From positions 105,256 to 169,255 of the forward strand of contig JACPLN010000005.1 of NCBI GenBank assembly GCA_016186485.1: 64,000 nt of DNA, written 5' to 3'. Below are positions 12,151 to 43,605 of the stretch, in pieces. Under the pieces are notes generated by a model. It was not told where the DNA came from and ran no database searches. It saw only the letters and a program-made list of their open reading frames with translations. This stretch comes from Candidatus Nealsonbacteria bacterium. Its GTDB lineage: Bacteria; Patescibacteriota; Minisyncoccia; Minisyncoccales; UBA6532. Position 1 is the stretch's first letter. Every line of letters starts with the position of its first letter. A program made the position numbers and the translations under genes.

Positions 12151-13623
12151 ATGATAAACTTTCTGCCGGTTATAGGTTTGGAGGTGCACGCTGAGCTGAA
12201 AACAAAAAGCAAGATGTTTTGTTCTTGCCATAATGATCCCTTGGAAAGGCACCCCAATACAAATATTTGCCCGATTTGCATGGGGCACCCGGGCACTCTG
12301 CCGGTTATTAATAAAGAAGCGGTGAGAAAAGTGATTAAAACGGGGCTGGCTTTAAATTGCCAAATTTCGGAACATTCTAAATTCGACAGAAAAAATTACT
12401 TTTATCCCGACCTCCCTAAAGGATATCAGATATCGCAGTATGACAAACCCCTGTGCCTGGGAGGTTTTTTAATTATTGATGGCAAGGAAATACGCATTAG
12501 GAGAATTCACCTTGAAGAAGACACTGGAAGGCTAATTCACCCTGAAGGGGCGGATTACAGCTTGGTTGATTTTAACAGAGCCGGAGTTCCTTTGATGGAA
12601 CTGGTGACCGAGCCCGATATTGATTCAGCAAAAGAAGCCAGAAGTTTCGCCCAAGAGCTCCAGCTTATTTTTAGATATCTTGGGGTTTCTGACGCTGATA
12701 TGGAAAAGGGAGAAATGAGGGTGGAGGCAAACGTGAGTTTGCTTCAACTTAAACCCAAAACCCAAAACCCAAAACCCAAAACTCTGGGTACTAAAGTAGA
12801 GGTTAAAAATCTGAACTCTTTCCGAGCAGTAGAGAAGGCAATAGAGTATGAGGTTATCAGGCAAAAAGGAATTCTTGGCAAGGGTAAGAAAGTCATTCAA
12901 GAGACTATGGGATGGGATGACGTTAGCGAAGTTACTTTCAGCCAGAGAATAAAAGAAGAAGCCCATGATTACAGGTATTTTCCCGAGCCCGATTTGCCGC
13001 CCTTGCGCATAACAAAAGAGGAGGTTTTGAGAATAAGGGCAGGCGTTCCCGAGCTTCCCCAAAACCGCAGAACAAGGCTTATTAAAGAATACAAATTAGA
13101 GCCAAAAGCGGCCGAGGTTTTCGTAACCAACAAAGACCTCGGTGAGTATTTTGAGAAGACGGTAAGCGAGTTTGATCCGCATCTTTCTAAAGAAAAACTC
13201 CAATCTTTAATAAAGCTGGCAACAAACTATATCGTTACAGACCTTCAGGGTTTGCTAAAGGGGGCTTTGGTGGCGGGCGAAGATTTTTTAATAACGCCGG
13301 AAAATTTCGCCGAGTTTATAAGTTTAATTTACGAAGGCAAAATTACGAGCAAAATTGCCAAGATTGTGCTGGAAGAAATGTTCAAGGCAGGAGCCGATCC
13401 CTCCCATATTATTGAAGAAAAAGGATTGGTTCAGATGACCGACGAGAAAGAAATCGAAGAAATAATAAAAGAGGTAATTTCTCAAAATCAAAAAGCGGTG
13501 GAAGATTACAAAAAAGGCAAAGAAAACGCCCTCCAGTTTTTATTAGGACAGGTAATGGCTAAAACTCAAGGCAAGGTCAATCCCGAGACCGCCCGCAAAC
13601 TTCTCTTGACAAAGCTAAAGTAA
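12151..13623 (+). CDS. gatB: Asp/Glu-tRNA amidotransferase subunit B
   Basis: GLEVHAELKT, CPICMGHPGTLP, GTKVEVKNLNSFR, and the C-terminal YqeY-like tail KGKENALQFLLGQVMAKTQGKVNP. Confidence 0.95.
   Translation: MINFLPVIGLEVHAELKTKSKMFCSCHNDPLERHPNTNICPICMGHPGTLPVINKEAVRKVIKTGLALNCQISEHSKFDRKNYFYPDLPKGYQISQYDKPLCLGGFLIIDGKEIRIRRIHLEEDTGRLIHPEGADYSLVDFNRAGVPLMELVTEPDIDSAKEARSFAQELQLIFRYLGVSDADMEKGEMRVEANVSLLQLKPKTQNPKPKTLGTKVEVKNLNSFRAVEKAIEYEVIRQKGILGKGKKVIQETMGWDDVSEVTFSQRIKEEAHDYRYFPEPDLPPLRITKEEVLRIRAGVPELPQNRRTRLIKEYKLEPKAAEVFVTNKDLGEYFEKTVSEFDPHLSKEKLQSLIKLATNYIVTDLQGLLKGALVAGEDFLITPENFAEFISLIYEGKITSKIAKIVLEEMFKAGADPSHIIEEKGLVQMTDEKEIEEIIKEVISQNQKAVEDYKKGKENALQFLLGQVMAKTQGKVNPETARKLLLTKLK
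12751..12785 (+). repeat. Heptanucleotide tandem array (AAACCCA x4 plus AAACTCT) inside gatB
   Basis: Read directly. It encodes LKPKTQNPKPKTL in a loop between the conserved ANVS and GTKVE blocks. Confidence 0.9.
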
Positions 13624-13656
13624 GTCGAACAGCCCCATAATTTTTTTAAAAAGTAC

Positions 13657-13685
13657 TTGACAGGGGTGTTAGCTATTGTATATAC
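13657..13685 (+). promoter_or_regulatory. Sigma70-like promoter for the toxin-antitoxin pair
   Basis: TTGACA (13657-13662), then 16-17 nt, then TATATA/ATATAC. ATG at 13695. Confidence 0.5.
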
Positions 13686-13694
13686 TTTAGATAT

Positions 13695-13973
13695 ATGGCG
13701 AAGACGATGATAAATATTAGGGCAGACCAGGATATAAAGAGCAAGGCACAGAGAGTTGCTCACGACCTTGGCATGCCTCTTTCTACGATTATTAATGCTT
13801 ATCTCAGACAGCTTATTCGCACCAAGGAGATTCACTTTTCTACTGAAGGAGAATTAAAGCCGGCAGTCAAAAAAAGACTGGATCGTATTCACGAAGAGGT
13901 CAGGGAAGGGAAGAATCTTTCCCCGGTATTTCATAATGCTAAGGCAATGGATTCTTATCTAGATTCTCTATAG
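13695..13973 (+). CDS. Type II antitoxin, RelB/DinJ family (ribbon-helix-helix)
   Basis: The N-terminus INIRADQDIKSKAQRVAHDLGMPLSTIINAYLRQL is DinJ-like. The toxin gene starts 3 nt downstream. Confidence 0.75.
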   Translation: MAKTMINIRADQDIKSKAQRVAHDLGMPLSTIINAYLRQLIRTKEIHFSTEGELKPAVKKRLDRIHEEVREGKNLSPVFHNAKAMDSYLDSL

Positions 13974-13975
13974 AA

Positions 13976-14236
13976 ATGAAGATACAGCTGCATAGAAATT
14001 TTGAGAAGAAATTTGTTAAACTTCCTCTCAAAATAAAGGAGAGGTTCAAAGAACGTAGAGGTCTCTTTCTAGAAGACGCTTTTAATCCGTTGCTTAATAA
14101 TCATCCTTTAAGCGGCGACCGTTTGGGGCAATGGAGTGTTAATATCACAGGCGACTGGCGCGCTATTTATGTGTTTAGAGACGAGAATACTATTGTTTTC
14201 ATTGATATAGACACGCACAGTAATTTATATAAATAA
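13976..14236 (+). CDS. Type II toxin, RelE/YafQ (ParE/RelE superfamily)
   Basis: NNHPLSGDRLGQWSVNITGDWRAIYVF....IDTHSNLY pattern. 86 aa, paired with the antitoxin. Confidence 0.75.
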   Translation: MKIQLHRNFEKKFVKLPLKIKERFKERRGLFLEDAFNPLLNNHPLSGDRLGQWSVNITGDWRAIYVFRDENTIVFIDIDTHSNLYK

Positions 14237-14240
14237 TAAT

Positions 14241-14351
14241 CAAGGCAAAGAAAACGCTTTGCAATTTCTTGTAGGCCAAGCAATGGCAAAATCTAGGGGC
14301 CGCGCCAACCCAGATAAAGTCAGGCAAACTCTATTGACAGAATTAAGATAG
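14241..14351 (+). pseudogene. Displaced relic of a gatB 3' end (36 codons plus stop)
   Basis: Translates to QGKENALQFLVGQAMAKSRGRANPDKVRQTLLTELR*, versus KGKENALQFLLGQVMAKTQGKVNPETARKLLLTKLK* at the live gatB end (22 of 36 identical by my count). No upstream coding continuation. Confidence 0.85.
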
Positions 14352-14362
14352 GGTGCTATAAT
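14334..14362 (+). promoter_or_regulatory. Perfect-consensus sigma70 promoter embedded in the gatB relic
   Basis: TTGACA (14334-14339), 17 nt, TATAAT (14357-14362). Confidence 0.75.
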
Positions 14363-14368
14363 TGGCTT

Positions 14369-14703
14369 AGCTCATAATGGCTGGACGATGAACACCGAGG
14401 GACGCTGGAGAACCTTAGCGTCTAGCAGGAGGGAAAGCTCCGGTCCCTTTGATGGAAGCACAGTCTTCTCTTGGGCCTAGATAGCAAGAGTTATCTTCTT
14501 GGGTGCTATGCAATAATGTCAGCCGGCTAAAAGGCTGGCTGGAAAGGGCGCAATACCCAACAATCACTAGCTTCTAGTGCAACTCTCGTAAGTTAAGTCT
14601 TACTTATGTTGCATACTAGCGAAGGCAAGAGGATGGCAGATGCGCTGTCTAGATATAATTAAAAGGGCCTAGTAGACTAAAAGTCCAACGGCCCCGTTTT
14701 TTT
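14369..14703 (+). ncRNA. Candidate structured non-coding RNA (~335 nt), family not identified
   Basis: Consensus promoter upstream. Terminator GGGCC (14665-14669) / GGCCC (14690-14694) followed by T7. No ORF above ~30 codons. Visibly higher GC than the flanks. Several hairpins: 14401-06/14417-22, 14499-504/14555-60, 14565-70/14574-79, 14578-83/14608-13 with inner 14588-92/14599-603. Confidence 0.6.
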
Positions 14704-14732
14704 ATTTTCAGAATGCGTGGTAATATTTTATA

Positions 14733-18800: not shown

Positions 18801-20585
18801 ATGGAAAATATCAGGAATTTTGTTATTATCGCCCATATTGATCACGGGAAGTCAACGCTGGCTGACCGGCTTTTGGAAATAACTGGTACAATTCCTAAAG
18901 AAAAAATGAAACCGCAGTATTTGGATATGATGGATTTGGAAAGAGAGAGGGGAATTACAATAAAAATGCAGCCGGTTCGCATGAACTACAATCTACATTC
19001 TACTTTCTACATTCTAAACTTGATTGATACCCCGGGTCACGTTGATTTTGCTTATGAGGTTTCAAGGTCTCTGGCTGCGGTTGAAGGAGCAATTCTTTTG
19101 GTTGACGCAACCCAAGGGGTTCAGGCGCAGACCCTGGCTAATTTGGAGCTGGCCAGGAAGCAAAATTTGGTTATTATACCCGTTGTGAACAAGATAGATT
19201 CTCCGCAGGCGAACACAGAGGAAGCGGCAATAGAGCTTTCCAAGGTTTTAGGAATAAAGAAGGAAGAAATTATAATGATTTCGGCAAGGCTCGGCACCAA
19301 TGTAGATAAAGTTCTCCTTTCTGTCATTGAAAAGGTCCCGCCTCCAAAAATTAATTTAGAGAAACCATTAAGAGCTCTGGTTTTTGATTCAGATTACGAT
19401 ACTTATAAAGGAATTCTGGCTTATGTGAGAATAATTGACGGCGAAATCAAAATGGGAGAGCAAATTCATTTAATGGCTGCAAACATATCCAGTCAGATAA
19501 AAGAAATTGGATACTTTGCTCCGGAGTTAAAGCCGGCTGATTCGTTAAAGTCTGGCGAGATAGGATATATAGCAACAGGGATAAAGGAGCCCGGCAAAGT
19601 AATGGTAGGGGATACCATCACAATTCCCAATTTCAACATTGGACCCTTGGCGGGTTATAAAGAGCCAAAGCCCGTTGTTTTTGCCAGCGTTTACCCCCAG
19701 AATCCGGACGATTTTGATTTATTGAAGATTGCTTTGGAGAAATTGAAGCTTAGCGATTACGCCCTGACTTTTGAGCAGGAACTTAAAGCAATAATCGGCA
19801 GAGGGTTCCGCTGCGGATTTTTAGGCTCTTTGCACGCGGAAATAGCGACAGAAAGATTAAAAAGGGAGTTTGGTTTGGAGGTTATAATTTCCAAACCCTC
19901 TGTTGTTTATAAAATAATTGATATTAAAGACAAGGAGCATTTTATATATTCCCCGGCCGACTGGATCAGCTACTCTTTGATCAAGGAAATCAAAGAGCCA
20001 TGGGTAAGGATAGAGGTTATTGCTCCAAGCAGGTTTTTAGGCCCAGCCTTAAATGTTTTGGAAAGCGTGTCCGGGCGCCAGGTTGGCATCGTAAACATCA
20101 GCCAAGACAAGCTTTTGGTGACATACGAATTGCCCCTAAGGGAACTGATAGTGGGATTTTACGACAATCTTAAGGGAGCCACCCAAGGGTATGCTTCAAT
20201 GAACTACGAAATTTTAGATTATAGGCAGGGGGATTTGGCAAAGCTTGAGGTTTTGGTTGCCGGCCAGAAAGAGGAAGCTTTTTCCGAGATTGTTCCCAAA
20301 GAAAAAGCTTACCAAGAGGGCAGCAGGATTGTTAAGAAGCTGAAAGATATTTTGCCTCCCCAGCTTTTTTCTGTTGCTTTGCAGGCGGTTTTCCAGGGCA
20401 AAATAATCGCCAGGGAAACAATGAGGGCAAAAGGCAGAGATGTTATCGCTCCTCTTTACGGGGGAGATTACACAAGAAAAAAGAAGCTTCTGGAAAAACA
20501 GAAAAAAGGAAAGAAAGAGTTAAAAGAAAAGGGAAAGGTTAGGATTCCGCCCAAAGTATTTTTGGAGATATTCAAGAGCCATTGA
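18801..20585 (+). CDS. lepA: Translation elongation factor 4 (LepA)
   Basis: IRNFVIIAHIDHGKSTLADR, DTPGHVDF, NKID, and the LepA C-terminal domain with a Lys-rich tail. Confidence 0.95.
   Translation: MENIRNFVIIAHIDHGKSTLADRLLEITGTIPKEKMKPQYLDMMDLERERGITIKMQPVRMNYNLHSTFYILNLIDTPGHVDFAYEVSRSLAAVEGAILLVDATQGVQAQTLANLELARKQNLVIIPVVNKIDSPQANTEEAAIELSKVLGIKKEEIIMISARLGTNVDKVLLSVIEKVPPPKINLEKPLRALVFDSDYDTYKGILAYVRIIDGEIKMGEQIHLMAANISSQIKEIGYFAPELKPADSLKSGEIGYIATGIKEPGKVMVGDTITIPNFNIGPLAGYKEPKPVVFASVYPQNPDDFDLLKIALEKLKLSDYALTFEQELKAIIGRGFRCGFLGSLHAEIATERLKREFGLEVIISKPSVVYKIIDIKDKEHFIYSPADWISYSLIKEIKEPWVRIEVIAPSRFLGPALNVLESVSGRQVGIVNISQDKLLVTYELPLRELIVGFYDNLKGATQGYASMNYEILDYRQGDLAKLEVLVAGQKEEAFSEIVPKEKAYQEGSRIVKKLKDILPPQLFSVALQAVFQGKIIARETMRAKGRDVIAPLYGGDYTRKKKLLEKQKKGKKELKEKGKVRIPPKVFLEIFKSH
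18984..19018 (+). repeat. Degenerate heptanucleotide array (AACTACA ATCTACA TTCTACT TTCTACA TTCTAAA) inside lepA
   Basis: Read directly. It encodes NYNLHSTFYILN just upstream of the DTPGH motif. Confidence 0.7.
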
Positions 20586-20610
20586 CAGGGTTAAAGATAT
20601 AACCTATAAT
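20582..20610 (+). promoter_or_regulatory. Consensus sigma70 promoter
   Basis: TTGACA (20582-20587), 17 nt, TATAAT (20605-20610). Confidence 0.7.
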
Positions 20611-20631
20611 ATATTCGGTTCGTCAAAATTG

Positions 20632-21078
20632 ATGGGATCAGAAAGAAGAGAAATAGCAGCAAAGGAAACTTCATGGCATCGCAGGTTAAGGAAAAAGCAT
20701 GTTACAAAACCGATTTTTTTTATTCTGCTAATAGTAACGATATTTTGGTTTGCCGGAATCCCTATTTATGCACGCACATCAGGGGCGGGTCTAATCCATC
20801 TTACCAGCAAAGAAACGAGGGTTAGTGGCATAGGAACAATGGAAGATATCAAAAATGCTAGCGTTAGGTTTGATGGTTCTCAATTAATCTTTACTGTTGA
20901 TGGACAAATAAGGAGCATCAAACACATAGGCTCCGGGGCCTTTCAGGAAGAGTTTGCCGTAGGGAATACTGTTGTTGTTATCAACGGAATTACAGAGCGG
21001 GGCGAAGTCTTTTTTGTCAAAATATCTTATTACCAAGGCCAAACCAAATCTTCTTTCCAAACATCTCTACCCGAATAA
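20632..21078 (+). CDS. Hypothetical single-pass membrane protein
   Basis: One TM helix (PIFFILLIVTIFWFAGIPIY). The leader is identical to that of the next gene. Confidence 0.5.
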   Translation: MGSERREIAAKETSWHRRLRKKHVTKPIFFILLIVTIFWFAGIPIYARTSGAGLIHLTSKETRVSGIGTMEDIKNASVRFDGSQLIFTVDGQIRSIKHIGSGAFQEEFAVGNTVVVINGITERGEVFFVKISYYQGQTKSSFQTSLPE

Positions 21079-21110
21079 ATAGTTCGTTCCGTACTCCCCG
21101 CATAATGCCC

Positions 21111-21139
21111 TTGACAGATATAAGAATACATGATATTAT
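21111..21139 (+). promoter_or_regulatory. Sigma70 promoter with extended -10
   Basis: TTGACA (21111-21116), 17 nt, TGA-TATTAT (21134-21139). Confidence 0.65.
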
Positions 21140-21160
21140 ATATTCGGTTCGTCAAAATTG

Positions 21161-21754
21161 ATGGAATCAAGAAAAATACTGACCGTGAAAAAGGGTTCGT
21201 GGCACTACCTGCTAGCGAAAGTACTTGATGACCTCTGGGGTTCGGATATCACTCTCTCGCGCGATGGCTGCAGTTACAGAAGAGGATTAGGCATAGGTGT
21301 TTTCTTTACAGCCATGCCGGTCTTTATGGCGATAGGCATTTTCGCAATTGTCTTTCCCCCAAAAGAGCCATTCTTATCAGCATTTTCCGTCTTAACCCCG
21401 ATATATGGGATAGCAACCCTAATCGAACTAATTGTTCTGTGGGAGAACATGAGCGAGAACAAAAAGCGTCCAGTACAGAGAGTTCTTGGTCCTATTGCAA
21501 AAGTTCTTGATAGGGCATTCGCAAGATGGGATCGCGCGCGTCTTGTCGTAGACAGGACAATAGATGAGCTCTTATCACCGCTAGGGACCCTCATAGACTA
21601 TCTGTGGGAAAGAATTCACGCGCGGCGAATGGCGAGCAGACAGCAAAAGCCCAAAGCCATAAAAGCAGAAAGACAAAAACAGCCAAACCTATTCTTTCTT
21701 TGGATTAAGGCCAAGAAAGAAAGATACTGCCCGCTAATAGAATTCGTGCCATAA
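21161..21754 (+). CDS. Hypothetical membrane protein
   Basis: Two or three TM helices. The N-terminus (K.GSWH) resembles the preceding gene. GC is higher than the surroundings. Confidence 0.5.
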   Translation: MESRKILTVKKGSWHYLLAKVLDDLWGSDITLSRDGCSYRRGLGIGVFFTAMPVFMAIGIFAIVFPPKEPFLSAFSVLTPIYGIATLIELIVLWENMSENKKRPVQRVLGPIAKVLDRAFARWDRARLVVDRTIDELLSPLGTLIDYLWERIHARRMASRQQKPKAIKAERQKQPNLFFLWIKAKKERYCPLIEFVP

Positions 21755-25288: not shown

Positions 25289-25354
25289 ATGCGAGCGCAC
25301 TTTATCGGCATCGGAGGAATCGGAGTGTCGGCCCAATGTGGTATATTTTTCTAA
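25289..25354 (+). pseudogene. Displaced relic of a murC 5' end (MRAHFIGIGGIGVSA then out-of-context tail)
   Basis: Nucleotides 25298..25332 match murC 26046..26080 at 29 of 35 positions. All 6 differences are synonymous third-codon positions. Homology ends at about 25334 and a stop follows at 25352-25354. Confidence 0.85.
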
Positions 25355-25380: not shown

Positions 25381-25974
25381 TCATTGAACCTTTTGAACCC
25401 GATAGCGTTTTATGTATAATTGGTGGCACGAGAGACTAAATCCCCCGATGAATATAGCAATGTCGCCAGGGCTTAGATAAACTGGAGATATCTGATCTCC
25501 TAACATTGGCAGGATGGCATCATCGGGGTTTGAGAGAAAGAGATGCCGTTCATAGACGACAGGCTCTGGGTATCCATCCATTATAACTGGCATATAGCCG
25601 TTGTTAACCGCAACAACAATCATATTACTAAGAATGCCAAAAGAGAGAATAATTAGACTAACTGCTAAAATTTTTCGCTTTCTATTTTGAACTGCTATAA
25701 TTAATAAAAAAGACGCGATTGATGTCCTAGTCATTAAAAATAGTAGATCTACTATATTGGACAGCAAGAACGAGAATATCATAATCAGAAATAAAATTCC
25801 GAGGAGTATCAGCACAAAAACCCTGATATGTTTTTGAAGTTTTTCAGCATTTCTTATCCAATATCTTTTCATTAAATCTTGAAGCAGTAATACCAGGCCT
25901 GGCCCAACTGACAGTATAATAAAGCAAGCAACATAATTACTCAACAGATAATCCAACGCAGTCTCAATTATCAA
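25381..25974 (-). CDS. Polytopic membrane protein, DUF5317-like (TTG start as drawn; start uncertain)
   Basis: NNGYMPV ... LGDQI ... SPGDIAIFIGG resembles my recollection of the DUF5317 pattern. The terminator hairpin GGGTTCA/TGAACCC overlaps its stop. Confidence 0.45.
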   Translation of the reverse strand: MIIETALDYLLSNYVACFIILSVGPGLVLLLQDLMKRYWIRNAEKLQKHIRVFVLILLGILFLIMIFSFLLSNIVDLLFLMTRTSIASFLLIIAVQNRKRKILAVSLIILSFGILSNMIVVAVNNGYMPVIMDGYPEPVVYERHLFLSNPDDAILPMLGDQISPVYLSPGDIAIFIGGFSLSCHQLYIKRYRVQKVQ

Positions 25975-33400: not shown

Positions 33401-34552
33401 GTTGATAAGACATTCACGGTAGCCCAATTGGCAACCGAGGGTATTACTACGACTGACCAGGCAGAAGAGGTAAAGATGGGAAGTTATGATACTTCCGCTC
33501 AAAACTGGACAATGATGCCAACTACAATTACTTATCTAAACAACGCCGACCAACCCATTGTGCCTACTTCAACAAATCTTTCGTTGGGCATTTCCAAAGT
33601 CGTCTTTAACGGCGTAACCAAGCACTTTTCAACCTTCGGTGTGATTAATTCTAAGTTTGACGGACTGGCTCCTTCAGCTCCCACTGGGGTTGCGGTAACA
33701 GTTTCCGGCAACCAGGCAACTGTTTCTTGGAACGCGGTTACTACAAATGCCGATGGCACTGCTGCCGGTGATCTGCAAAAGTATGCAATCTATAGGTCTT
33801 CAGGATCATCCGGTCCCTGGACAAAGATTACTACCGTACCGGTTGGCACCACTTCTTATACAGATACTTTGCCTTCAGGAGGTACTTCCTACTACAAAGT
33901 AACGGCTGATACCGGTTTGCAGTCTGATTTCTCAGGTTCTTCTGGCGGCGTCAGCCCTTCAAGCGGCGGATCAGAAAATATAGTTTCTACTCCTTCTTCT
34001 GGGGGCGGCGGGGTATCAACCCCTCCTCCGGCCTCTCCAGCCGCTCCTTCAGTTCCACCAGAAACGCCAAAGAAAATAGCTGAGGCTCCGGCAGCCCCAA
34101 AAGCAGAAGTAAAAGCCGAGAAAAAGCTTACCGTGACCTTTGACAAGCCAATCAGCAAGATGACAAAAGCAGAGATTCAGGTAAAAATAGCCGAAATTCT
34201 GGAGGTGATTAATAATTTGAAAGAAATGATTAAAGAGGTCGCAACATCTGTTATTGAAGGGATTCCTTCTGGATTCAAGTTTGAAAGGACTATAAAGCCA
34301 GGATCCGCAAGCGATGATGTAAAGTACATCCAGATTATTTTGAATTCTGACCCAGACACAAGAATATCGGGATCAGGCGCCGGCTCTCCGGGTAAAGAAA
34401 CGAATTACTTTGGATCCATAACCAAAGCCGCATTAATCAAATTCCAAGAAAAGTACGCTTCCAAGATTTTGGCTCCTTGGGGATTGATTAAAGGGACGGG
34501 AACTCTTGGAAATAACACTAGGGATAAATTGAACGAGATTATTGGTAAATAA
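27452..34552 (+). CDS. Giant (2366 aa) cell-surface protein: signal/anchor, Ig-like (SbsA/Big_5-like) domains, CarboxypepD_reg-like repeats, FN3, C-terminal peptidoglycan-binding domain
   Basis: N-terminal hydrophobic segment. Repeated ISG.V.D..G..V.NA.V.. motifs. FN3-like APSAPTGVAVTVSGNQATVSWNAV...YAIYRSS. C-terminal PG_binding_1-like DDVKYIQIILN...GSITKAALIKFQEKY. Thr/Ser/Gly-rich. Confidence 0.8.
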   Translation: MPYKSISRFFKKVAVFFIAIVTIFGVTNPFLFLPKIVFAQDTVPPNINHWSAWQADGDAVVTTTLYVHAFVGDNTATPGSTLVVSALSKSAGWGGFSSSTCYAEYSDTNQFRCPIGIQGGSDARTFNYYLEAFDGENKSWRSWATDTNSLNNAKNYPFQTTVYNAPSWTNGISAEVTDGRHYNFSRGIQVATSTLYISSTTDSTANLAVNDWIILKSTTGASEPKVKILAINGFGQTATEYEVQISGYTPHNFTTSDYVNEFVDNALVFIDGTTAYATTTAVQATTTFGAISLYNVPNGSFDVTAFKQGYTEHRITNVYLSGTSTSTLRFVLPFGGFQGGANLGGTSVSWSAPSNGMTGAPANIGIAQQPILVAFSGNASSTTISKNNITLKVANPDGTFTAFSGYYNVAYEAQGTNVSIGGTNYDFGPDAKAIVYSSTTLATSTGYVVRLNNNVKDANNSPINGNDPQGGHTVFFSTSGGFFSGGAGITVGNFGSGGSFMPPFALNVMPNSGSVNVARNTKIAVQFDQPMSASSLSSNIELKALSSTFQEGDSVTFTAALSDTDKSLLIITPSSNLAASIRYKVKLLGGLQSSSGVSMAPPGSASTKMFEFEFTTGSLTDSAAPTILAAGLDRFLVGSTYTGVPVSGILKVSFSESIDPTTVNASNVYLRRKGSTSNISGDVKYDIMEGKVLLAPSTALNATTTYILTLTGYIKDLTGAQNALATTTYEFTTGGVDVTGPALSFFNADDYSLSLTFDEPMNSAAITDTNTWPSGSTKWQTSVLNPSNYIVYVDDGAPTTGAFAKYFNVDSLASSSAPSVTLTYDSMFKTIKIKGMQLFAGSSGVSSDSSRRGARVWIKNATDISGNVIQANVGPDAEADNFGSNAAGGPVKNSQSTFGQMGPGGGMFAPPSTAGSFTITDFGGKNPAMMGMMPVGIWPMNMMAGATSTYMMDIPVSSGKAIPASGKIVIGPFPDEANVSLVRDADPNKTFAHRDINGPGTGTVTIASVSVSGQTVTVTLGTTGTQAPDFIHLELDNIKNPTTPTQSGYKVSIQTQKADSTALESFTSMPFFITPKGKYVIIGHVTATDVGLNGVQVFGGSPSTGPLFANSSNSAFGSSTDGEFKIEGLNAGDVMLMTEQSITIGADEYIASFPEPIHLDDSTTNNNSGAAKGGLTGCTSTTACYGYKKITLTRVAAGTTPGLVVYIYGNFATTTGAGYATIDIFAGGQNGFKVKEVSLNGDYSSTPYSTLLSLPNTGSYFVGIGPAMPKTMGKSAPPMPTTWMPPKPVNVNVSGSGGTWTWVESDSASTGTSTADGLVKFTIVSANKTISGHVYDTSGNAVTNAQVFAYSPNGSFGNSTYVGQNGSFSLQVSTGFYKIGAFLPGAPPTNEIGVEVKSSAVLVDGITTTDVILKISKDIQSGYTISGTVYSDTSSQYPASDASVYAYRTDGPGNTETMTDSKGTYTLYVGIGTWKVGVFLPSHGKLTEQTVSVSPSKSGLKFTPDTTTNYVTIRERVWEDQNDDGVVDSGEGIAKATVTFVATSTAYVNTAVTDSSGVYEIKVPATTTYDIYVWSPDIGNLAPQKNTIVTSTNIIYTSFSDYADMRTEKATTVEFGIYDSNNVATTVDKLLIQLDRIGVFGVSNDVYKEKVATTTIRVATSTRPYILDARIEGIPKGLLTFTTFDANTALTTTTVGTKRFATTTVNDYEKIKILLPPVSYVSGQVRDDSGNGISNAVLHIEQPGTDVEFDVDTDSSGNYSFRVASSTTPYLIQANVSGYIDSADSVYASSTSLTYNPSVKKANFTISGQVTINGSAPSGTSVYVWAEKLGGGYGATAKGDPSTGAYTLSITEGSWEVAASAEGYSALTKPVIVDVSGNNVSGIGFDIASEATTQKPQNLSMAGNVGGTVTNKDSGFEMSVPTGTISASDSSSYNVKEKEVSNIPTYTPTGNLVGNTAEEVSAYKMSGSGGNVSTVSGLNGSAFVDKTFTVAQLATEGITTTDQAEEVKMGSYDTSAQNWTMMPTTITYLNNADQPIVPTSTNLSLGISKVVFNGVTKHFSTFGVINSKFDGLAPSAPTGVAVTVSGNQATVSWNAVTTNADGTAAGDLQKYAIYRSSGSSGPWTKITTVPVGTTSYTDTLPSGGTSYYKVTADTGLQSDFSGSSGGVSPSSGGSENIVSTPSSGGGGVSTPPPASPAAPSVPPETPKKIAEAPAAPKAEVKAEKKLTVTFDKPISKMTKAEIQVKIAEILEVINNLKEMIKEVATSVIEGIPSGFKFERTIKPGSASDDVKYIQIILNSDPDTRISGSGAGSPGKETNYFGSITKAALIKFQEKYASKILAPWGLIKGTGTLGNNTRDKLNEIIGK

Positions 34553-35749: not shown

Positions 35750-35815
35750 ATTTGAGCGTCGGCGATAGCACTCACTAAAGACTTAGTATTGGAGTCAACT
35801 GCCGGCGCTCTTCAT

Positions 35816-36784
35816 ATGAATTTTCAATTTTCAATTTCTAATTTCCAAAAAAATGTTCCGTTAAACAATCATACTACGTTTAAAATCGGGGGGCCGGCGA
35901 AATATTTTTTTGCCGCCAAAACAAAAGAAGATATAATTCAGGCGATAAATTGGGCAAAGAAAAACGATCTGCCGTTTTTTATTTTGGGAGGCGGCAGCAA
36001 TATGGTGGTTTCAGACAAAGGCTTCAACGGCCTTGTTATAAAAATACAAACCACAAACTATAAACTGCAAGCTGCAAGATTGCATGCCGAGGCCGGTGTT
36101 CTAATAGAAACGCTGGTAAGGGAAACCGGTAAGTTAGGGTTGTCCGGTTTTGAATGGGCCGGGGGATTGCCAGGGACTTTAGGAGGGGCAATAAGAGGGA
36201 ACGCCGGAGCCTTTGGAGGAGAAATCAAAGACAATATAATTGAAGTTGAGGCGCTGGATAATAAGGGAAGAATTAGAAAATTTTCTAAAAAACAATGCCG
36301 GTTTTCTTACAGGGATTCTATTTTCAAAGATAAAAACTGGATTATTCTTTCGGCAATTTTTGTATTTAAAAATGGGGATGGGGAAAAAATTAAAGAAGCG
36401 GCAAGGGAACACATTAATTACCGCAAAGAAAGACACCCTCTTGAATACCCAAGCGCCGGCAGCGTTTTTAAAAACTGCGATTTAAAAGATGTGCCAATAA
36501 ATATCAGAAATTTTTTTAAGGATGTTGTGAAAACAGATCCTTTCCCTGTTGTGCCAGCAGCCGCCATTATAGCCAGAGCCGGTTTAAAGGGATTAAGGGC
36601 TGGGGGGGCCGAAGTTTCGGAAAAACACCCCAACTATATTGTTAATAAAGACAATGCGAGAGCGGTTGATGTGCTGAAACTTATAAAAATGGTTAAGAAA
36701 AAGGTTAAAGAAAATTTTGGGATAAAGCTAGAGGAAGAGATACAGTTGTTGGGTTTTTCTTCAAATAATTTATTGACAAAATAA
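35816..36784 (+). CDS. murB: UDP-N-acetylenolpyruvoylglucosamine reductase
   Basis: FAD-binding TTFKIGGPAKYFF, GGGSNMVV, and C-terminal SAGSVFKN. I prefer ATG 35816. Confidence 0.9.
   Translation: MNFQFSISNFQKNVPLNNHTTFKIGGPAKYFFAAKTKEDIIQAINWAKKNDLPFFILGGGSNMVVSDKGFNGLVIKIQTTNYKLQAARLHAEAGVLIETLVRETGKLGLSGFEWAGGLPGTLGGAIRGNAGAFGGEIKDNIIEVEALDNKGRIRKFSKKQCRFSYRDSIFKDKNWIILSAIFVFKNGDGEKIKEAAREHINYRKERHPLEYPSAGSVFKNCDLKDVPINIRNFFKDVVKTDPFPVVPAAAIIARAGLKGLRAGGAEVSEKHPNYIVNKDNARAVDVLKLIKMVKKKVKENFGIKLEEEIQLLGFSSNNLLTK
35821..35848 (+). repeat. Heptanucleotide array (TTTTCAA x2, TTTCTAA, TTTCCAA) forming codons 2-11 of murB
   Basis: Read directly. It encodes NFQFSISNFQ. Confidence 0.85.
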
Positions 36785-36801
36785 TCGCTTCATGCTAGCA
36801 T
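36773..36801 (+). promoter_or_regulatory. Sigma70-like promoter of paralog A; overlaps the last codons and stop of murB
   Basis: TTGACA (36773-36778), 17 nt, TAGCAT (36796-36801). Homologous to the promoter at 38040. Confidence 0.6.
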
Positions 36802-36817
36802 CTTACTAGGTGAAAAA

Positions 36818-37489
36818 TTGAACCTTAACAAGTACGTATATCCTAAGGGCTACAAAGTAAAGAACATTACGGAGCAGACCAACATCTTGCGTCAGTTATT
36901 CCCCGGAATAGGCTATGCTGACGAGAGAATAGTCAAAGGACCTTTGCCGGAGGGAGCCGAAGGATGGTTCGCCATCCCGAGGTGGGATAGTATCGCGCAT
37001 ACCTACAACGAGGCGGTGGATAAGGTGCTGAAAATGCTCAAGCAACAGTGCAAAGGCAGGTTCTATAACTACCGCGAGCACCATATAACAGATTGGTTGC
37101 AACAAACCAATAAGGCAATGAAGATGTTCTATAAGATATGGCAAGAGCAGGATGGATACGACATTCTCGTAGTTCCGGCGCAGTTCGGTCTCCGTCATCG
37201 GGGCCTTTCCATTAGGCAGGCTCGGAATGCCATGAATGTCATGGAGTTTGGTTTCGGCGCTTTCGCCGTCGGTATCATGCTATTGATCCATCCCGAGCGG
37301 GAAGTCCAGTGGGAACAGCTCCACGTTCTATGCGCTGGTGACGACTTCAGTATCATCTATGTCGAGTCCTTGCGCGAGCCGTTTTTCGACTTCTACAACG
37401 GCGAGGTAAAGTTCGACAACTGCTTGGAACATAGCTACGACGATCGCTACGGTTCCGCGTCGGGATTTGTCTCGTCCTCCTCCGTATAA
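36818..37489 (+). CDS. Unassigned protein family, paralog A (223 aa, TTG start)
   Basis: TAGGTGA SD-like sequence then TTG. Shares blocks GAEGWFAIPRW, YNEAV, PAQFGLRHRG, HPEREVQWEQLH and C-terminal GSASGFVSSSSV with 38085.. and 55518.. Confidence 0.8.
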   Translation: MNLNKYVYPKGYKVKNITEQTNILRQLFPGIGYADERIVKGPLPEGAEGWFAIPRWDSIAHTYNEAVDKVLKMLKQQCKGRFYNYREHHITDWLQQTNKAMKMFYKIWQEQDGYDILVVPAQFGLRHRGLSIRQARNAMNVMEFGFGAFAVGIMLLIHPEREVQWEQLHVLCAGDDFSIIYVESLREPFFDFYNGEVKFDNCLEHSYDDRYGSASGFVSSSSV

Positions 37490-37598
37490 AAACTATGGAC
37501 GGACAAGCAGTAGCCTTTCAAATAATTATCCGCCAAAGGCGGATCCGCCTATGGCGGAAACTCTCGGGTCTTTTAATCCTTGAGTTCTTTTTTATTTT
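37490..37598 (+). other. Conserved 3' module, copy A: GC palindrome (37530..37557) plus terminator hairpin and T-run
   Basis: CCGCCAAAGGCGGATCCGCCTATGGCGG, then AACTC..GAGTT and CTTTTTTATTTT. Nearly identical downstream of all three paralogs. Confidence 0.85.
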
Positions 37599-37617
37599 CA
37601 CTAGTGTAATGAAAAAC

Positions 37618-37646
37618 TTGACAAATTTATAAACAGAGAGTAATGT
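37618..37646 (+). promoter_or_regulatory. Sigma70-like promoter
   Basis: TTGACA (37618-37623), 17 nt, TAATGT (37641-37646). Confidence 0.55.
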
Positions 37647-37676
37647 GTTGGGTAGCACAAAAGAGGCGTTGGTTGG

Positions 37677-37991
37677 TTGAGAGAAGGTGTCTTTTTTAGG
37701 GTTGCTGTTATAACTACTATAGCTGTATTAATAAGCGCTGGTATTACCATGTTGCTTTTTTCTAAAACCGATGGGCCGTCGTCTTACCCGCTTAGGTCTG
37801 AATTTAATACGCTTAACTACCCTGTTATTAAAGTAGAGGCGCCAGCTTCCTGGGGTAAGGTAGTGGACGTTTCTCCGAGTAGGGATTATGGGATAACGGC
37901 TTTGGTCTTTGAAGATGGACATGTATTGTATCTTAAAATAGGTTACGTTTATAATACTGTAATAGAAGTCGTTCCAATCCGCGGCAATTAA
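37677..37991 (+). CDS. Small N-terminally anchored hypothetical protein (104 aa, TTG start) between paralogs A and B
   Basis: One TM helix (VAVITTIAVLISAGITMLLF). Own promoter and terminator. Confidence 0.5.
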   Translation: MREGVFFRVAVITTIAVLISAGITMLLFSKTDGPSSYPLRSEFNTLNYPVIKVEAPASWGKVVDVSPSRDYGITALVFEDGHVLYLKIGYVYNTVIEVVPIRGN

Positions 37992-37998
37992 CAAAAAG

Positions 37999-38027
37999 CG
38001 GGGAGAAAATTTCGCCCCGATTTTTTA
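37999..38027 (+). terminator. Intrinsic terminator
   Basis: CGGGG (37999-38003) pairs with CCCCG (38015-38019), followed by a T-run. Confidence 0.6.
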
Positions 38028-38039
38028 TTCTTACTGTAC

Positions 38040-38068
38040 TTGACAAAGTAATCGCCTTATTCTAATAT
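38040..38068 (+). promoter_or_regulatory. Sigma70-like promoter of paralog B
   Basis: TTGACA (38040-38045), 17 nt, TAATAT (38063-38068). The leader TAGTAGGTGAAAAATTGAACCTT is nearly identical to copy A. Confidence 0.65.
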
Positions 38069-38084
38069 CTTAGTAGGTGAAAAA

Positions 38085-38804
38085 TTGAACCTTGAAAATC
38101 TGATGAGTCCGTTCTTCGCTAACGAAGAAGCGTCGTCCAACTACGGCTATCCGCAAGGGTATGCCGTGAAGCCGATTTCGGAACAGCTCGTGGAGCTTTC
38201 CAAGCACTTCAAAAGCCTCAATAACAGTTCGGTGCTCGCGTGTTCTAATGAGCTTCCGGCTCTGCCCGCTGGCGCGGAAGGCTGGTTCGCCGTTCCGCGA
38301 TGGGAGAAAGTCGCGTCTTCGTACAACGAGGCTGTTAAGAAGGTCCTCTACCTGATCGGCAAGACCCGCAACTTCTACAACTGCCGTAAATACGCACTCG
38401 GCCCGAAGTACCTGCGGCTCTCTGAGCGAACGGCTGTCGCGCTCCAGATGATCTGCGAAAAGCAGAAGGGCGACTTTCTGCTGATCCCGGCGCAGTTCGG
38501 TCTGACCCATCGCGGTCGGTCCGTGCGAAGGGTGCGCGTGGTATACGCTCCCCACGAGTTCGGCCTCGGGTCGTTCATCGCGGGGTGCATGATCCTGTCA
38601 CATCCCGAGCGCCTCGTTCAGTGGGAGCAGTTGCACATTGACTGCCCCGGTGACGAGTATAGTCCTGGCGCCGATGGTCGCTTCGACAGCGCGCCGATCT
38701 TTTTCTTCGTCGACAGCGAGGTCAAGTTCAACGCCTTCTGGGTCAGCCTCGCCCGCGAGCACGATGGCTCCGCGTCGGGATTTGTCTCGTCCTCCTCCGT
38801 ATAA
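38085..38804 (+). CDS. Unassigned protein family, paralog B (239 aa, TTG start), GC-rich core
   Basis: Same conserved blocks and identical C-terminal GSASGFVSSSSV. The interior is strongly diverged from A and C. Confidence 0.8.
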   Translation: MNLENLMSPFFANEEASSNYGYPQGYAVKPISEQLVELSKHFKSLNNSSVLACSNELPALPAGAEGWFAVPRWEKVASSYNEAVKKVLYLIGKTRNFYNCRKYALGPKYLRLSERTAVALQMICEKQKGDFLLIPAQFGLTHRGRSVRRVRVVYAPHEFGLGSFIAGCMILSHPERLVQWEQLHIDCPGDEYSPGADGRFDSAPIFFFVDSEVKFNAFWVSLAREHDGSASGFVSSSSV

Positions 38805-38909
38805 AAACTATGGACGGACAAGCAGTAGCCTTTCAAATAATTATACGCCAAAGGCGGATCCGCCTATGGCGAAAACTCTCGGGTCTTTTAATCCTTGAGT
38901 TCTTTTTTT
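38805..38909 (+). other. Conserved 3' module, copy B
   Basis: Together with the last ~40 nt of the CDS, it differs from copy A at 3 positions by my count. Palindrome core at 38845..38872. Confidence 0.85.
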
Positions 38910-40264: not shown

Positions 40265-40268
40265 CATT

Positions 40269-40811
40269 ATGGTTCCGACAAAATTTTTCCTTACAAAAGG
40301 CGTAGGCATACATAAAGAGAAATTGACTTCTTTTGAGCTGGCTCTAAGGGATGCCGGGCTGGCTCCATTTAATTTGGTATATGTTTCCAGCATTGTGCCC
40401 CCTGGCTGCAAGAGAATTTCTAAGGAAGAAGGGGTCGTTTCATTAAATCCCGGGGAAATAGTTTTCTGTGTTATGGCTAGAAACGCCACAAACGAACCAA
40501 ACAGATTGGCCGCTGCTTCAATTGGCTGCGCCATACCGGCGGAAAATAACCAATACGGCTATCTTTCAGAGCATCATTCTTTCGGAGAAACCGATGAAAA
40601 AGCCGGCGAATATGCCGAAGATTTGGCGGCTTCCATGCTGGCTACGACTCTGGGCATTGAGTTTAATCCGGATGCCGCTTGGGACGAAAGAGAACAGATT
40701 TATAAAATGGGAGGAAAGATCACCAGGACGTTTAACGCCACTCAATCTTCGCAGGGCAATAAAAACGGGCTTTGGACATCCGTAGTGGCCGCCGCCGTCT
40801 TTGTTTTTTGA
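40269..40811 (+). CDS. pdaD: Pyruvoyl-dependent arginine decarboxylase
   Basis: [39 protein letters not shown] is typical of PdaD. ATG 40269 lies 4 nt after the ATP-grasp stop. Confidence 0.8.
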
Positions 40812-40834
40812 ATATAAATTATTTAAGGTAAATT

Positions 40835-43261
40835 ATGTCGCTGCTGGCTAAAATTTTTGGGGATGCCAATGAGAAATATTTGGAAGGTTTGCAGCCATTG
40901 GTTGAGAAAATAAACCAGCTCGAATCCCAATTCGAGTCTTTTTCTGCCGGACAGCTGAAAGAAAAAACAAAAGAGCTCAAAGAGAAATTGGGCGAAGGCG
41001 GAACTTTAACTGACGAGATATTGCCCCCAGCTTTTGCTTTAGTCAGGGAGGCAGCAAAAAGAACTCTTAACCAGCGCCACTTTGACGTCCAGCTAATCGG
41101 AGGAATCGCATTGCATCAGGGTAAAATTGCCGAAATGAAAACCGGCGAAGGAAAAACGCTTACCGCTACCCTCCCTGTTTATTTTAATGCTCTGCAAGGG
41201 CGTGGAGTGCACGTGATAACGGTAAATGATTATCTTGCAAAAAGGGATACGGTATGGATGGGGCAGATATACGATTTTTTGGGGCTGTCGGTGGGGTGCA
41301 TAGTTCATGAGGCGGCATACCTATATGATCAAAATTACCAGCCAAATAATAAAGATAGAGAGAGAGATTTGCTTGGCGGGTTTAAGGTTGTTGAAAGTTA
41401 CTTGAGACCAGTTTCAAGAAAGGAAGCCTATGGCGCAGATATAACCTATGGGACCAATAACGAATTCGGGTTTGATTACTTGAGAGACAATATGGTTTAC
41501 ACCCAAGACCAAATGGTCCAGCGAGGTTTTGATTATGCCATTATTGACGAAGTAGACTCAATTTTAATTGACGAGGCCAGAACTCCTTTGATTATTTCTG
41601 CTCCGGATACAGAATCTTCAAAAATGTATGAAGAATTTGCCAGGATTATTCCTCGGCTTTCAAAAGATATTGATTACGAAATAGATGAAAAAAGAAAATC
41701 CGCCACACTAACAGAGGCCGGGATTAATAAAGTTGAAAAGATCTTGGGAATGAAGGATATTTATCAAGAAAAGGGGATAAGATACCTTCATCATTTAGAG
41801 CAAGCTTTGAGGGCAGAAGTTTTCTTTAAAAAAGACCGAGATTATATTGTTAAAGACGGGGAGGTTATAATAGTTGATGAGTTTACCGGCAGATTGATGG
41901 CGGGGCGCAGGTGGTCTGGCGGCCTTCACCAGGCAGTAGAAGCAAAAGAAGGATTGAGAATACAGCCAGAATCAATAACTCTAGCTTCCATAACCTTTCA
42001 AAACCTATTTCGCATGTACAGCAAATTGGCCGGAATGACCGGGACTGCGGCAACCTCAGGAGAAGAGTTTTCAAAAGTTTATGGGTTGGATGTTGTTGTC
42101 GTCCCGACCGAAAAACAGATGATAAGGCAAGATTTGCCGGATAAGATATATAAGACGAGAGACGGAAAGTTTGTGGCGGCAGCGAGAGAAATTAAAGAAC
42201 GCCACAAAAAAGGCCAACCATTGCTGGTAGGCACTGTTTCTATTGAAAAAAATGAGTACCTAGGAAAGCTTTTGGACAGAGAAGGTGTTCCCCATAATAT
42301 CCTTAATGCAAAAAATCACGAAAAAGAAGGTGAAATTATCGCTCAAGCCGGGAGGCTGGGAGCCGTAACAATTGCTACGAATATGGCAGGCCGCGGCGTT
42401 GATATTATCCTAGCTGGCAATCCCCAGGATCCAGAGGAGGCTAGAAAGGTTCGGGAAACAGGCGGGCTTCATGTTATCGGCACTGAACGCCATGAAGCAA
42501 GGCGTATTGACAACCAGTTGCGGGGAAGGTCTGGCAGGCAGGGGGATCCGGGCTCATCGCAGTTTTTTGTTTCTTTGGAAGATGATTTAATGAGGATTTT
42601 TGGGGGAGAGAAGATTAAAAGATTAATGGAAATGCTGAAGATTCCGGAAGATGAGCCCATTGAAGCAAAATTAATTTCTGGGGTTATAGAGGGCGCTCAA
42701 GCAAAAATTGAAGGAATGAATTTTGATTTAAGAAAGCATCTTTTGGATTTTGACGATGTTTTAAACAAGCATAGAGAAGTGATATACAAAAAAAGGAGAG
42801 AGACGTTAGATAAATCTCAAATATTATTGATTGTCAAAAAGGCGGGATATTCGGAAAGCGATTATGAAAAAAAAGAAAAAGAAGTAGGAGAGGAAAACAT
42901 GAGAAAACTTGAAAAATTCATTCCGCTTAGGGTGATTGACGCTCTTTGGGTTGAACACTTGGAAAATATGGAGCAGTTGAGAGATTCTGTAAGGCTGAGG
43001 GGTTATGGTCAGCAGGATCCTTTGATAGAATACAAGAATGAGGGCCATAGGCTTTTTCAGGGCCTATTGAAAACGCTGGAGCTGTCAATCGCAAACACAA
43101 TAATGAAAGTCGGCGAGGCAAAGGAAGCGTCATATCAATCCCCACCTCCGGTAAAAATTCAGGGCAGCTCGGCCAAAGTTAGCCGTAACGATCCCTGTCC
43201 ATGCGGAGCGAAAAAACCAGACGGTCGCCCAATAAAGTATAAACATTGCCATGGAAAATAA
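40835..43261 (+). CDS. secA: Preprotein translocase ATPase SecA
   Basis: DEAD motor motifs ([38 protein letters not shown]) and C-terminal zinc motif [21 protein letters not shown]. Confidence 0.95.
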
Positions 43262-43583
43262 ACCGCTGAAAAAACTTTTAAGATCTTCTTATCGGAAAGA
43301 GATGTGGAAGAATGCAGAAGAGATTGTGCGAAAGATTGAAAAGGTATTGCCGATTTCTTCAATGTACTTGATGGGAAGTTTTGCATCGAAGAAACGAAGA
43401 CCCGCAGATGTAGATTTTATTGTAATGCTACAAACGCCGGTTAAACGAAAGCATGAAAAGTGGTCACTTGATCTAGTCATCGCACCAGATAATAAACATG
43501 GCAAGGAGTTACTTGAAGATAATAAAAAGTGGATGAAGCAGAAATATGGTGCAAAAAAGTCAGAGGTTATGCGGTATCGGTAA
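43251..43583 (+). CDS. Minimal nucleotidyltransferase-domain protein (MNT-like)
   Basis: The [17 protein letters not shown] pattern is G-S...D-x-D. Its start overlaps the secA stop by 11 nt. Confidence 0.6.
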
Positions 43584-43605
43584 GAAATATAAGAGATGTC
43601 ATGAG
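43570..43605 (+). pseudogene. Relic of a SecA C-terminal zinc-finger ([12 protein letters not shown]) in a frame unrelated to neighbours
   Basis: TGC GGT ATC GGT AAG AAA TAT AAG AGA TGT CAT GAG matches the canonical SecA tail C-G-x-G-K-K-Y-K-x-C-H. The first Cys pair of the motif is missing. Confidence 0.55.

Follow-up and report, generated by a model that had tools for sequence, protein, structure and literature searches.

At rhs loci, displaced tips, each with a partial repeat of the core, pile up downstream, and homologous recombination with circular intermediates has been proposed as their origin (Jackson et al. 2009, PMC2935791). Homology-facilitated illegitimate recombination (HFIR) has been proposed for effector–immunity arrays belonging to type VI secretion systems (T6SS) (Kirchberger et al. 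2017, PMC5361080). Integrative elements are also known to replace the 3′ end of a target gene, as in tRNA and tmRNA islands and with phage 21 and e14 in icd (PMC7192596). Here, we describe a comparable arrangement around housekeeping genes in a 64-kb stretch of DNA (hereafter the window) from a metagenome-assembled genome (MAG; NCBI) of an ultra-small groundwater bacterium, named Candidatus Nealsonbacteria, situated on a contig of 181,449 bp and covering locus tags HYW70_02285 to HYW70_02380. Silent second copies of the ends of gatB, murC and recJ lie on the far side of small accessory units of 0.6–0.9 kb (cargos 1, 2 and 4), and this pattern is real for all three genes; a shorter and weaker case is found at secA (cargo 3). 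The arrangement is best read as an extension of terminus displacement, known for toxin genes, to the core genes of ultra-small bacteria.

The closest known process is the C-terminal displacement of Rhs, contact-dependent inhibition (CDI) and T6SS loci. As in those systems, the conserved gene has one or more displaced and silent versions of its end behind it, each introduced by a short repeat of the conserved part; the locus carries no recombinase; arrays accumulate, with four SecA-tail copies in one contig (L109); and the new ends would come in laterally with a small neighbouring gene. The preliminary description of this DNA knew of no described mechanism for such a pattern, a statement that no longer holds, given that Rhs, CDI and T6SS displacement has the same anatomy and that integrative elements replace 3′ ends. 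In contrast to Rhs, CDI and T6SS loci, the genes concerned here are housekeeping genes (gatB, murC, secA, recJ, argS, rplK and rnj) rather than polymorphic toxins, and the incoming end would be an orthologous equivalent (62–100% amino-acid identity) rather than a non-homologous toxin domain. The passengers are unrelated accessory genes (RelBE, DUF5317, DUF6932 and a family without a Pfam match) instead of a cognate immunity gene, and 5′ ends and promoters are displaced as well, in pieces of about 20 to 111 nt. To call the targets "essential", as was done at first, is loose, as recJ and promoter duplications also show the pattern.

Second copies of the gatB, murC and recJ ends

The window has a G+C content of 42% and is tightly packed with housekeeping genes (pheT, gyrB, thyX, gatB, miaA, murJ, lepA, efp, murC, murB, secA, secDF, metK, pgk, recJ and nadE). 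The three loci are laid out as follows.

12151-13623, + strand: gatB (open reading frame (ORF), translation, GatB homologues)
13513-13623, + strand: live C-terminal tail of gatB, typical of relatives
13657-13686: promoter of cargo 1 itself, from a promoter scan
13695-13973, + strand: cargo 1, RelB antitoxin (Pfam PF04221; matching NCBI name)
13976-14236, + strand: cargo 1, RelE/YafQ/ParE-type toxin (Pfam PF15738/PF05016; matching NCBI name)
14241-14351, + strand: relic of the gatB tail, silent and in frame, with 36 codons and a stop, start codon absent
25290-25336, + strand: silent relic of the murC 5′ end, ATG then MRAHFIGIGGIGVSA, starting 7 nt past the ligT stop
25381-25974, − strand: cargo 2, DUF5317 membrane protein (Pfam PF17248)
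25986-27365, + strand: murC, with the duplicated motif at 26046-26081
54314-55468, + strand: recJ (NCBIfam TIGR00644), live tail at 55418-55468, NLDKFKSCLIKYFEER plus stop
55515-56310, + strand: cargo 4, the paralog C unit, with a conserved 3′ hairpin region as in paralogs A and B
56356-56412, + strand: silent relic of the recJ tail, NLEKFRNCMIDYFVGH plus stop, with the NAD kinase promoter immediately after

The gatB relic was retrieved by a within-window tblastn search with an E-value of 1.5e-12; counting the stop, it agrees with the live tail in 23 of 37 codons, and base identity is 66%; among random hits, the chance probability of such amino-acid identity is P=5e-5. Despite 34% base divergence, its 36 codons are free of stops and frameshifts and the terminal stop is retained, while 33 of the 36 residues occur in real GatB tails. 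The kept frame and stop fit the import of a foreign gene end, one of the origins considered from the start. When scored for similarity to the tails of 119 relatives, the live tail reaches 0.62 (expected 0.63±0.04) and the relic 0.53, below all 119; the placement of the differences in conserved versus variable columns is not significant (p=0.15). The intervening genes constitute a type II toxin–antitoxin (TA) pair, with both families over the cut-off (PF04221, 32.8 bits; PF05016, 27.7 bits) and the two genes 2 nt apart.

At murC, the order of live and relic copies mirrors the Rhs-type layout with the displaced copy at the 5′ end, and the start within 25290-25336 has the appearance of the original one. 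Live and relic sequences agree in 12 of 12 amino acids, and all seven base differences between them are synonymous; the probability of such amino-acid identity in a random hit is P<5e-5. Live murC has a leader of 21 residues before the FIGIGG motif, where the median is 10 in 88 representatives and only 4.5% have at least 20. This long leader nevertheless resembles that of the nearest homologue.

The recJ case was absent from the preliminary description and was added by the present analysis. A 0.9-kb paralog C unit separates the live tail from a copy with the protein reading KNLEKFRNCMIDYFVGH plus stop, which was detected with an E-value of 0.002.

A controlled scan compared each of 114 gene termini with its neighbouring 1.6 kb and, as a control, with 150 regions farther away. 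The outliers were gatB (z=20), murC (z=7.5) and recJ (z=6.9). Among the displaced termini first claimed, those of gatB and murC are thereby upheld, and that of secA is weak within the window (z=2.0) and draws its backing from other genomes. Further outliers (the C-termini of 21158-21754 and 6277-6894 and the N-terminus of 24597) are short or low-complexity matches and were rejected.

One pipeline searched for terminal relics in 81 sequences (1.35 Mb), namely the window and 80 GatB-centred loci, with reversed queries as control. It returned 13 relic hits compared with one for the reversed queries, which together with the control-region z-scores bears out the expectation that relics exceed controls. 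Two of the 13 hits come from the window, which makes up 5% of the sequence and for which the rate in the other Patescibacteria loci predicts about 0.3–0.5. For the genome-wide habit first proposed, this suggests, short of proof, that the window is enriched in relics, in a small sample of 64 kb only. Parallels in other loci are given below.

L018: argS, a 199-aa Cys/His-rich protein, then a relic of the argS tail
L026: rplK, a 124-aa ORF, then a relic of the L11 tail
L010, 7703-7825 and 9387-9510: a diverged intergenic segment of ~120 nt repeated either side of tmk-thyA, ahead of a gene for dihydrofolate reductase, which makes a further cassette-like unit with duplicated junctions
L104/L110: RNase J with a nucleotidyltransferase (see next section)

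Duplication affects strongly conserved motifs, namely the tails of GatB, ArgS and L11, the GIGGIG loop of MurC and the zinc finger of SecA, and live/relic pairs display 62–100% amino-acid and 63–83% base identity over repeat lengths from about 20 to 111 nt. The gatB, recJ and secA relics lie downstream in direct orientation, lack a start codon and have a stop ahead of each. All live ORFs are complete, with the GatB tail and the MurC motif intact.

One of the 13 hits, L014 3070-3320, was discarded as a scaffolding artefact: it is a perfect 24-codon duplicate of a gene end on either side of an N run, and makes a useful negative control for genome-wide relic scans. The sequence of the window is itself a MAG, in which strain or species variants could have been joined in tandem. 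We regard such an assembly artefact as a very improbable source of the window relics, whose copies (63–83% identical) are too diverged for common assembly k-mers and whose sites contain no N runs. Moreover, two independent Logan assemblies (two sequencing runs) match 42706-50583 exactly, covering the secA region with its relic; the RelB and RelE genes are also present on Logan contigs; and the same anatomy occurs in unrelated assemblies.

How the copies diverged was examined by codon-aligned comparison of seven live/relic pairs. Differences at codon positions 1:2:3 amount to 26:22:55, and the pooled ratio of nonsynonymous to synonymous divergence (pN/pS) is 0.29, a value biased downward because the pairs were found mostly by protein similarity. 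From the third-position bias and the kept frame and stop of gatB, it follows that the copies diverged mostly as working gene ends. These ratios and the seven synonymous murC changes agree with the earlier argument that the duplicated termini are not simple target-site duplications. Live and relic copies would have come from different lineages, to judge from these codon patterns, and been joined recently relative to neutral decay.

Duplication in place, whether as a long target duplication or a trimmed tandem duplication, would instead start from identical copies, with later drift in the silent one and continued selection on the live one. Long target duplications around Helicobacter restriction-modification genes are reportedly described by Nobusato et al. 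2000 (Gene). As an explanation of the present relics we consider this improbable. At murC, a drifting relic would be expected to differ at about 7 first and second codon positions, yet 0 of 24 changed, compared with 7 of 12 third positions; drift is equally hard to reconcile with the uninterrupted gatB frame over 36 codons at 34% divergence, with the 33 relic residues known from real GatB tails and with the pooled 26:22:55. In-place duplication does suit a pair of 45-bp repeats at 7711 and 8667, which is identical, and paralogs A, B and C, which were copied within the genome (3′ ends 95% identical), and possibly the recJ pair, which is compatible with random decay (P=0.19).

secA and the DUF6932 nucleotidyltransferase

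The third cargo originally proposed lies behind secA, where the two SecA-tail sequences overlap the accessory gene at both of its ends.

40835-43261, + strand: secA, with a live zinc-finger tail; left flank 43226-43261, of which the last four codons overlap the nucleotidyltransferase start
43251-43583, + strand: cargo 3, small nucleotidyltransferase DUF6932 (NTase; Pfam PF22014)
43570-43605, + strand: SecA-tail-like right flank, conserved in L102, L109 and L118

The relic is short, at about 7–12 codons (KYKRCHE), of which the first five are formed by the NTase's own 3′ coding end, read in another frame. A displaced secA copy, not significant within the window, is supported by comparison with other genomes: the live tail type is also present in L102 and L109, and the NTase recurs in the contexts listed below.

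L102 (Liptonbacteria): immediately past secA
L109: at the contig start, with a SecA-type tail ahead
L094/L096: one gene further downstream of secA
L104/L110: directly past RNase J
L111/L121: past a glyoxalase-family gene
L118-L120 (Giovannonibacteria): past a gene of unknown function
L117: 8 nt past a tRNA

In nearly every context, L104, L122 and L125 included, the NTase gene lies no more than a few bases from where a core gene or tRNA ends (SecA, RNase J, TrpRS, ProRS, M1 peptidase, tRNA). The tRNA-like gene of L117 (2148-2250) has a CAT anticodon loop and a ~25 nt insertion before the T arm, and was not called by ARAGORN.

Alignment of the NTases gives a conserved unit that is exactly the ORF. 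In secA contexts, the left SecA-tail copy (..KKYKKCHGK plus stop) holds the NTase start codon, and the right copy (CGIGKKY.RCH.) begins in the NTase stop region; joined right to left, the two flanks make one complete SecA tail (ending HGK plus stop, the junction falling just before HGK). Degenerate versions of both flanks travel with the gene to non-secA sites (L118, L121). Where the NTase follows RNase J, it lies between an rnj tail that is live and an rnj relic that has diverged (ILPVVIEI and ILLLVIEI, each plus stop), with mostly synonymous differences.

SecA zinc-finger tail motifs (KKYK.C...) occur serially around the NTase in L109 (1-820) and L102 (3850-4420), in up to four copies, and SecA tails are of two types, ..CHGK plus stop and ..CGLIN..HRK plus stop. 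In Parcubacteria, the 3′ end of secA has the look of a hot spot where recombination recurs.

Homologues of the NTase are 81–87% identical in other Parcubacteria and 61–65% identical in DPANN archaea, one of the archaeal carriers coming from the same sample (SRR12113424). One archaeal and one bacterial copy are 62% identical, and the aminoacyl-tRNA synthetases next to them are unrelated to each other. Synonymous divergence has reached saturation in the NTase (pS 0.77–0.85) and in SecA (pS 0.78–0.88), so the secA-NTase arrangement is old rather than a recent insertion. The preliminary description counted it among the insertions; a recent insertion is also contradicted by its recurrence in Liptonbacteria and other Parcubacteria at pS saturated for both genes (0.83 and 0.88). 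The high amino-acid identity that could suggest recent NTase transfer is thus misleading; the NTase is under stronger constraint than SecA (pN 0.07–0.12 vs 0.23–0.31). Viral scans found no phage carrier of the NTase or RelE. A −1 frameshift at a heptamer of the A_AAA_AAG type close to the NTase 3′ end (43545-43560; conserved in L102, L109 and L096) was considered and dropped, as it leads into the wrong frame for the SecA-like flank.

Proposed terminus displacement and its alternatives

What is observed is how the loci are built, that such relics outnumber those in the controls, that selection shaped the divergence of the two copies and that other Patescibacteria have the same arrangement. A lateral origin and a crossover mechanism are inferred from this, and so would be the choice of the native copy, on which the evidence points both ways. 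We favour terminus displacement, with DNA of lateral origin entering at the ends of conserved genes; in our judgement, this interpretation stands evenly balanced between being correct and not. DNA from another Parcubacteria lineage would bring a small accessory gene together with the adjoining end of a conserved gene, and would recombine with the resident gene at a short near-identical stretch inside the conserved terminus. A single crossover with a circularised fragment would yield terminus, cargo, terminus, as in Campbell-type integration; alternatively, a homologous anchor combined with one illegitimate joint (HFIR) would lead to the same structure. One copy of the terminus would stay fused to the gene and functional while the other would be left silent past the cargo, and the cassette would need no dedicated recombinase.

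In a compact genome, deletion of the displaced copy would often be barred by the following gene's promoter or start, which lies in it or next to it. The ligT stop adjoins the murC relic, a promoter directly follows the recJ relic, and the gatB relic as well as the lepA and murB ends hold −35 boxes. Insertions close to a gene end survive under such conditions only where the overlapping piece exists in duplicate, and promoters buried in gene tails constrain where insertions survive.

Exact blocks within three repeats are longer than shuffling predicts: 16 nt in gatB (p=0.024), 28 nt in rplK (p=0.007) and 27 nt in a promoter repeat beside lepA (p=0.003), with a Fisher combined p=0.002. They would look like a crossover or conversion tract within the repeat, and codon conservation could be an alternative source. 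On account of these blocks, we lean toward the single-crossover version. HFIR resembles the present loci in that a one-sided homologous anchor in a conserved gene admits non-homologous DNA, and differs in not predicting long exact blocks inside the repeats. For HFIR in natural transformation (PMC3240628; references in PMC5361080), experimental demonstration is reported for closely related partners only. It suits organisms with presumed DNA uptake; competence genes are reported to be prevalent in Patescibacteria (PMC12455944).

The 16-nt identical block of gatB sits exactly at the inner edge of the repeat, which also suits a different account. An integrase encoded elsewhere (tyrosine or serine; from a prophage, similar to that of an integrative and conjugative element, or Xer-type) would insert circular cassettes into gene ends, with an att site that mimics the gene end and repairs the target. 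The repeats would then be attL and attR, and each cassette a miniature or decayed integrative element, a remnant like the recombinase-less cis-mobilisable elements. Conserved gene 3′ ends, and the L117 site 8 nt past a tRNA, are the classical choice of integrative elements, whose insert-borne substitute terminus likewise keeps a conserved target functional and leaves the diverged native end at the far junction (PMC7192596). Conservation of the NTase flanks, which together make up a complete SecA tail, extends across lineages, as though selection acted on the element, and the four SecA-tail copies of L109 resemble tandem accretion. All the same, we rate this account as unlikely. Pfam and NCBIfam scans over about 40 window proteins found no integrase or transposase, in line with the initial remark that no recombinase was in sight. 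A consistent identical core is missing, with no block at the repeat edge in murC, recJ, secA, rnj or argS; repeat length is inconsistent (about 20 to 111 nt); the cargos have no common motif or inverted repeat; and the inserts (0.33–0.9 kb) are far smaller than known islands (0.3–0.9 kb vs 5–100 kb).

Integron cassettes are not indicated, as the TA, DUF5317 and NTase cargos lack a common 3′ element, the window has no integrase and 3′ hairpins are common only to paralogs A, B and C; nor are transposons or insertion sequences, given repeats of 20–111 nt that have diverged and scans of about 40 window proteins that found no transposase. Restriction-modification insertions in Helicobacter are said to be similar as small selfish units between direct repeats of tens to hundreds of bases that need no transposase; there, the repeats are near-identical copies of the local target, whereas most pairs here show selection-shaped divergence.

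Several observations weigh against terminus displacement by lateral DNA. Recombination at 20–35% sequence divergence is very inefficient. The recJ pair by itself fits in-place decay, and GC-rich paralog C lies beside the AT-rich live recJ tail, which means that no single GC-rich donor supplied them both. The low similarity score of the gatB relic could signify either a foreign relic or early decay, both of which fit, and the pooled pN/pS carries the bias stated above. The 45-bp repeats at 7711 and 8667, being 100% identical, reflect a different or recent kind of event. At secA, the unit is ancient, and in the NTase right flank the window and L102 agree at 19 of 22 bases, beyond what a neutral relic would retain and unexplained by displacement alone; one reading is that this flank is selected as a recombination arm. 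No junction motif common to the cassettes was found: the candidates, CTCAATTAT and AATWATCAAGG, each at two or three cassette edges, occur at chance frequency overall, which disposes of the shared motifs looked for at the outset.

An insertion-free allele or donor genome was likewise not found among 80 GTDB loci or in protein searches, where matches reach at most 75% identity. The closest GatB homologue outside the genome itself is only 75% identical among 5.8 billion proteins, and GatB in the nearest GTDB species representatives is 68–73% identical, which leaves no close insertion-free relative for comparison. A second gatB tail was seen in 0 of the 80 loci retrieved by the GTDB scan with GatB (best locus 73% identical), the contig index held no exact GatB match, and gatB synteny among relatives stops short of murC, secA and the cargos. 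For the TA proteins, no copy elsewhere reaches 90% identity.

A bolder extension of terminus displacement, which we find conceivable though doubtful, is that the conserved first and last codons of core genes serve as portable, recombinase-free attachment sites in Patescibacteria and perhaps DPANN archaea. Tiny cassettes bearing a mimic of a gene end would cross between diverged genomes by short-homology crossover, the DUF6932 NTase between conserved SecA-tail copies being one such cassette and arrays of displaced ends a by-product. If true, this would constitute a general route of gene gain in ultra-small genomes with a readable record of donor and recipient. Members of the Candidate Phyla Radiation have tiny, packed genomes with few recognisable mobile elements and clear gene exchange, and the route of entry is poorly understood. 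Displaced ends would be physical scars of gene entry that mark the insertion point and keep a sample of another lineage's sequence, and would show conserved housekeeping genes serving as recombination anchors. A relic scan over thousands of existing genomes would make transfer rates and partners in uncultivated lineages measurable.

Promoter repeats, paralogs A, B and C and neighbouring genes

Duplicated promoter segments and within-genome copies occur at further sites in the window.

20578-20647 and 21107-21176, + strand: duplicated promoter/5′ untranslated region/start-codon segment (lepA-side repeats), 79% identity
20629-21078, + strand: gene for a 149-aa membrane protein between the lepA-side repeats
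7711-7755 and 8667-8711, + strand: direct repeats of 45 bp
7863-8633, + strand: repeat-protein gene within these direct repeats
36773-38908, + strand: two copies of a promoter-to-terminator unit, with paralog A at 36818-37489 and paralog B at 38085-38804
36773-36831 and 38040-38098, + strand: promoter repeats of the two units
37441-37593 and 38756-38908, + strand: 3′ repeats of the two units
37677-37991: small membrane ORF between the paralog A and B units
14365-14705, + strand: putative structured RNA gene, driven by a promoter inside the gatB relic, with a terminator-like hairpin and T-run at its end

The lepA-side duplication, another addition to the preliminary description, contains the 27-nt exact block; the lepA stop sits in the −35 box of the first repeat, and the two proteins downstream of the repeats are unrelated to each other. 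The duplicated 45-bp junctions first noted around the repeat-protein cassette are confirmed, each spanning a terminator T-run and a promoter. At murB (35789-36784), the last codons and stop lie inside the −35 box (TTGACAAAATAA) of a promoter-like repeat common to paralog B. This is a promoter overlapping a stop codon and not a displaced terminus, so murB, once counted as a related case, drops out; the one relic candidate, 37593-37631, matches only by TTGACAAA plus weak similarity and was not accepted.

Paralogs A, B and C are within-genome copies, and the G+C content at third codon positions (GC3) of cargos A and B is 0.66–0.75 versus about 0.40 for the genome. The paralog C gene occupies 55515-56198, and the 3′ regions of A, B and C lie at 37490-37593, 38805-38908 and 56199-56310. 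Their family comprises >1000 Parcubacteria proteins without a Pfam match and is G+C-rich even in A+T-rich hosts (GC3 0.66–0.86), with a highly conserved core followed by ~35 variable C-terminal codons and then conserved hairpins. In the variable region, codon positions 1, 2 and 3 vary in 25, 27 and 15 of 35 columns, compared with 96, 76 and 128 of 173 columns in the core, and 65% of variable-region codons end in C. On these features (NNC codons, variable first and second positions, hairpins), the paralogs carry the signature of diversity-generating retroelement targets. Such retroelements are known in these lineages (PMC8144416). The 64-kb window contains no reverse transcriptase, template repeat or fourth paralog copy, and a Foldseek search of the PDB with an AlphaFold2 model of the family (predicted local distance difference test score, pLDDT, 69) gave no match.

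Behind the gatB relic, a promoter of perfect consensus with a TG extension (TTGACA-17-TATAAT, 14334-14362) has its −35 box inside the last relic codons. The RNA gene that follows is ~340 nt long with a fold z-score of −2.7; it matched no Rfam family at gathering score (a weak sok match, E=0.22) and no homologue in the fetched loci. The transcript may be a small RNA gene not described before.

The + strand gene at 51602-53272 encodes a coupling ATPase resembling TrwB/TraG that has a treble-clef zinc finger (PF10412, PF23477) and could possibly belong to the DNA-transfer machinery reported in Patescibacteria and so have a bearing on the entry of foreign DNA. On the same strand, 27452-34552 encodes a secreted or surface protein of 2366 residues, with a G+C content of 0.45–0.48 that is above its surroundings.

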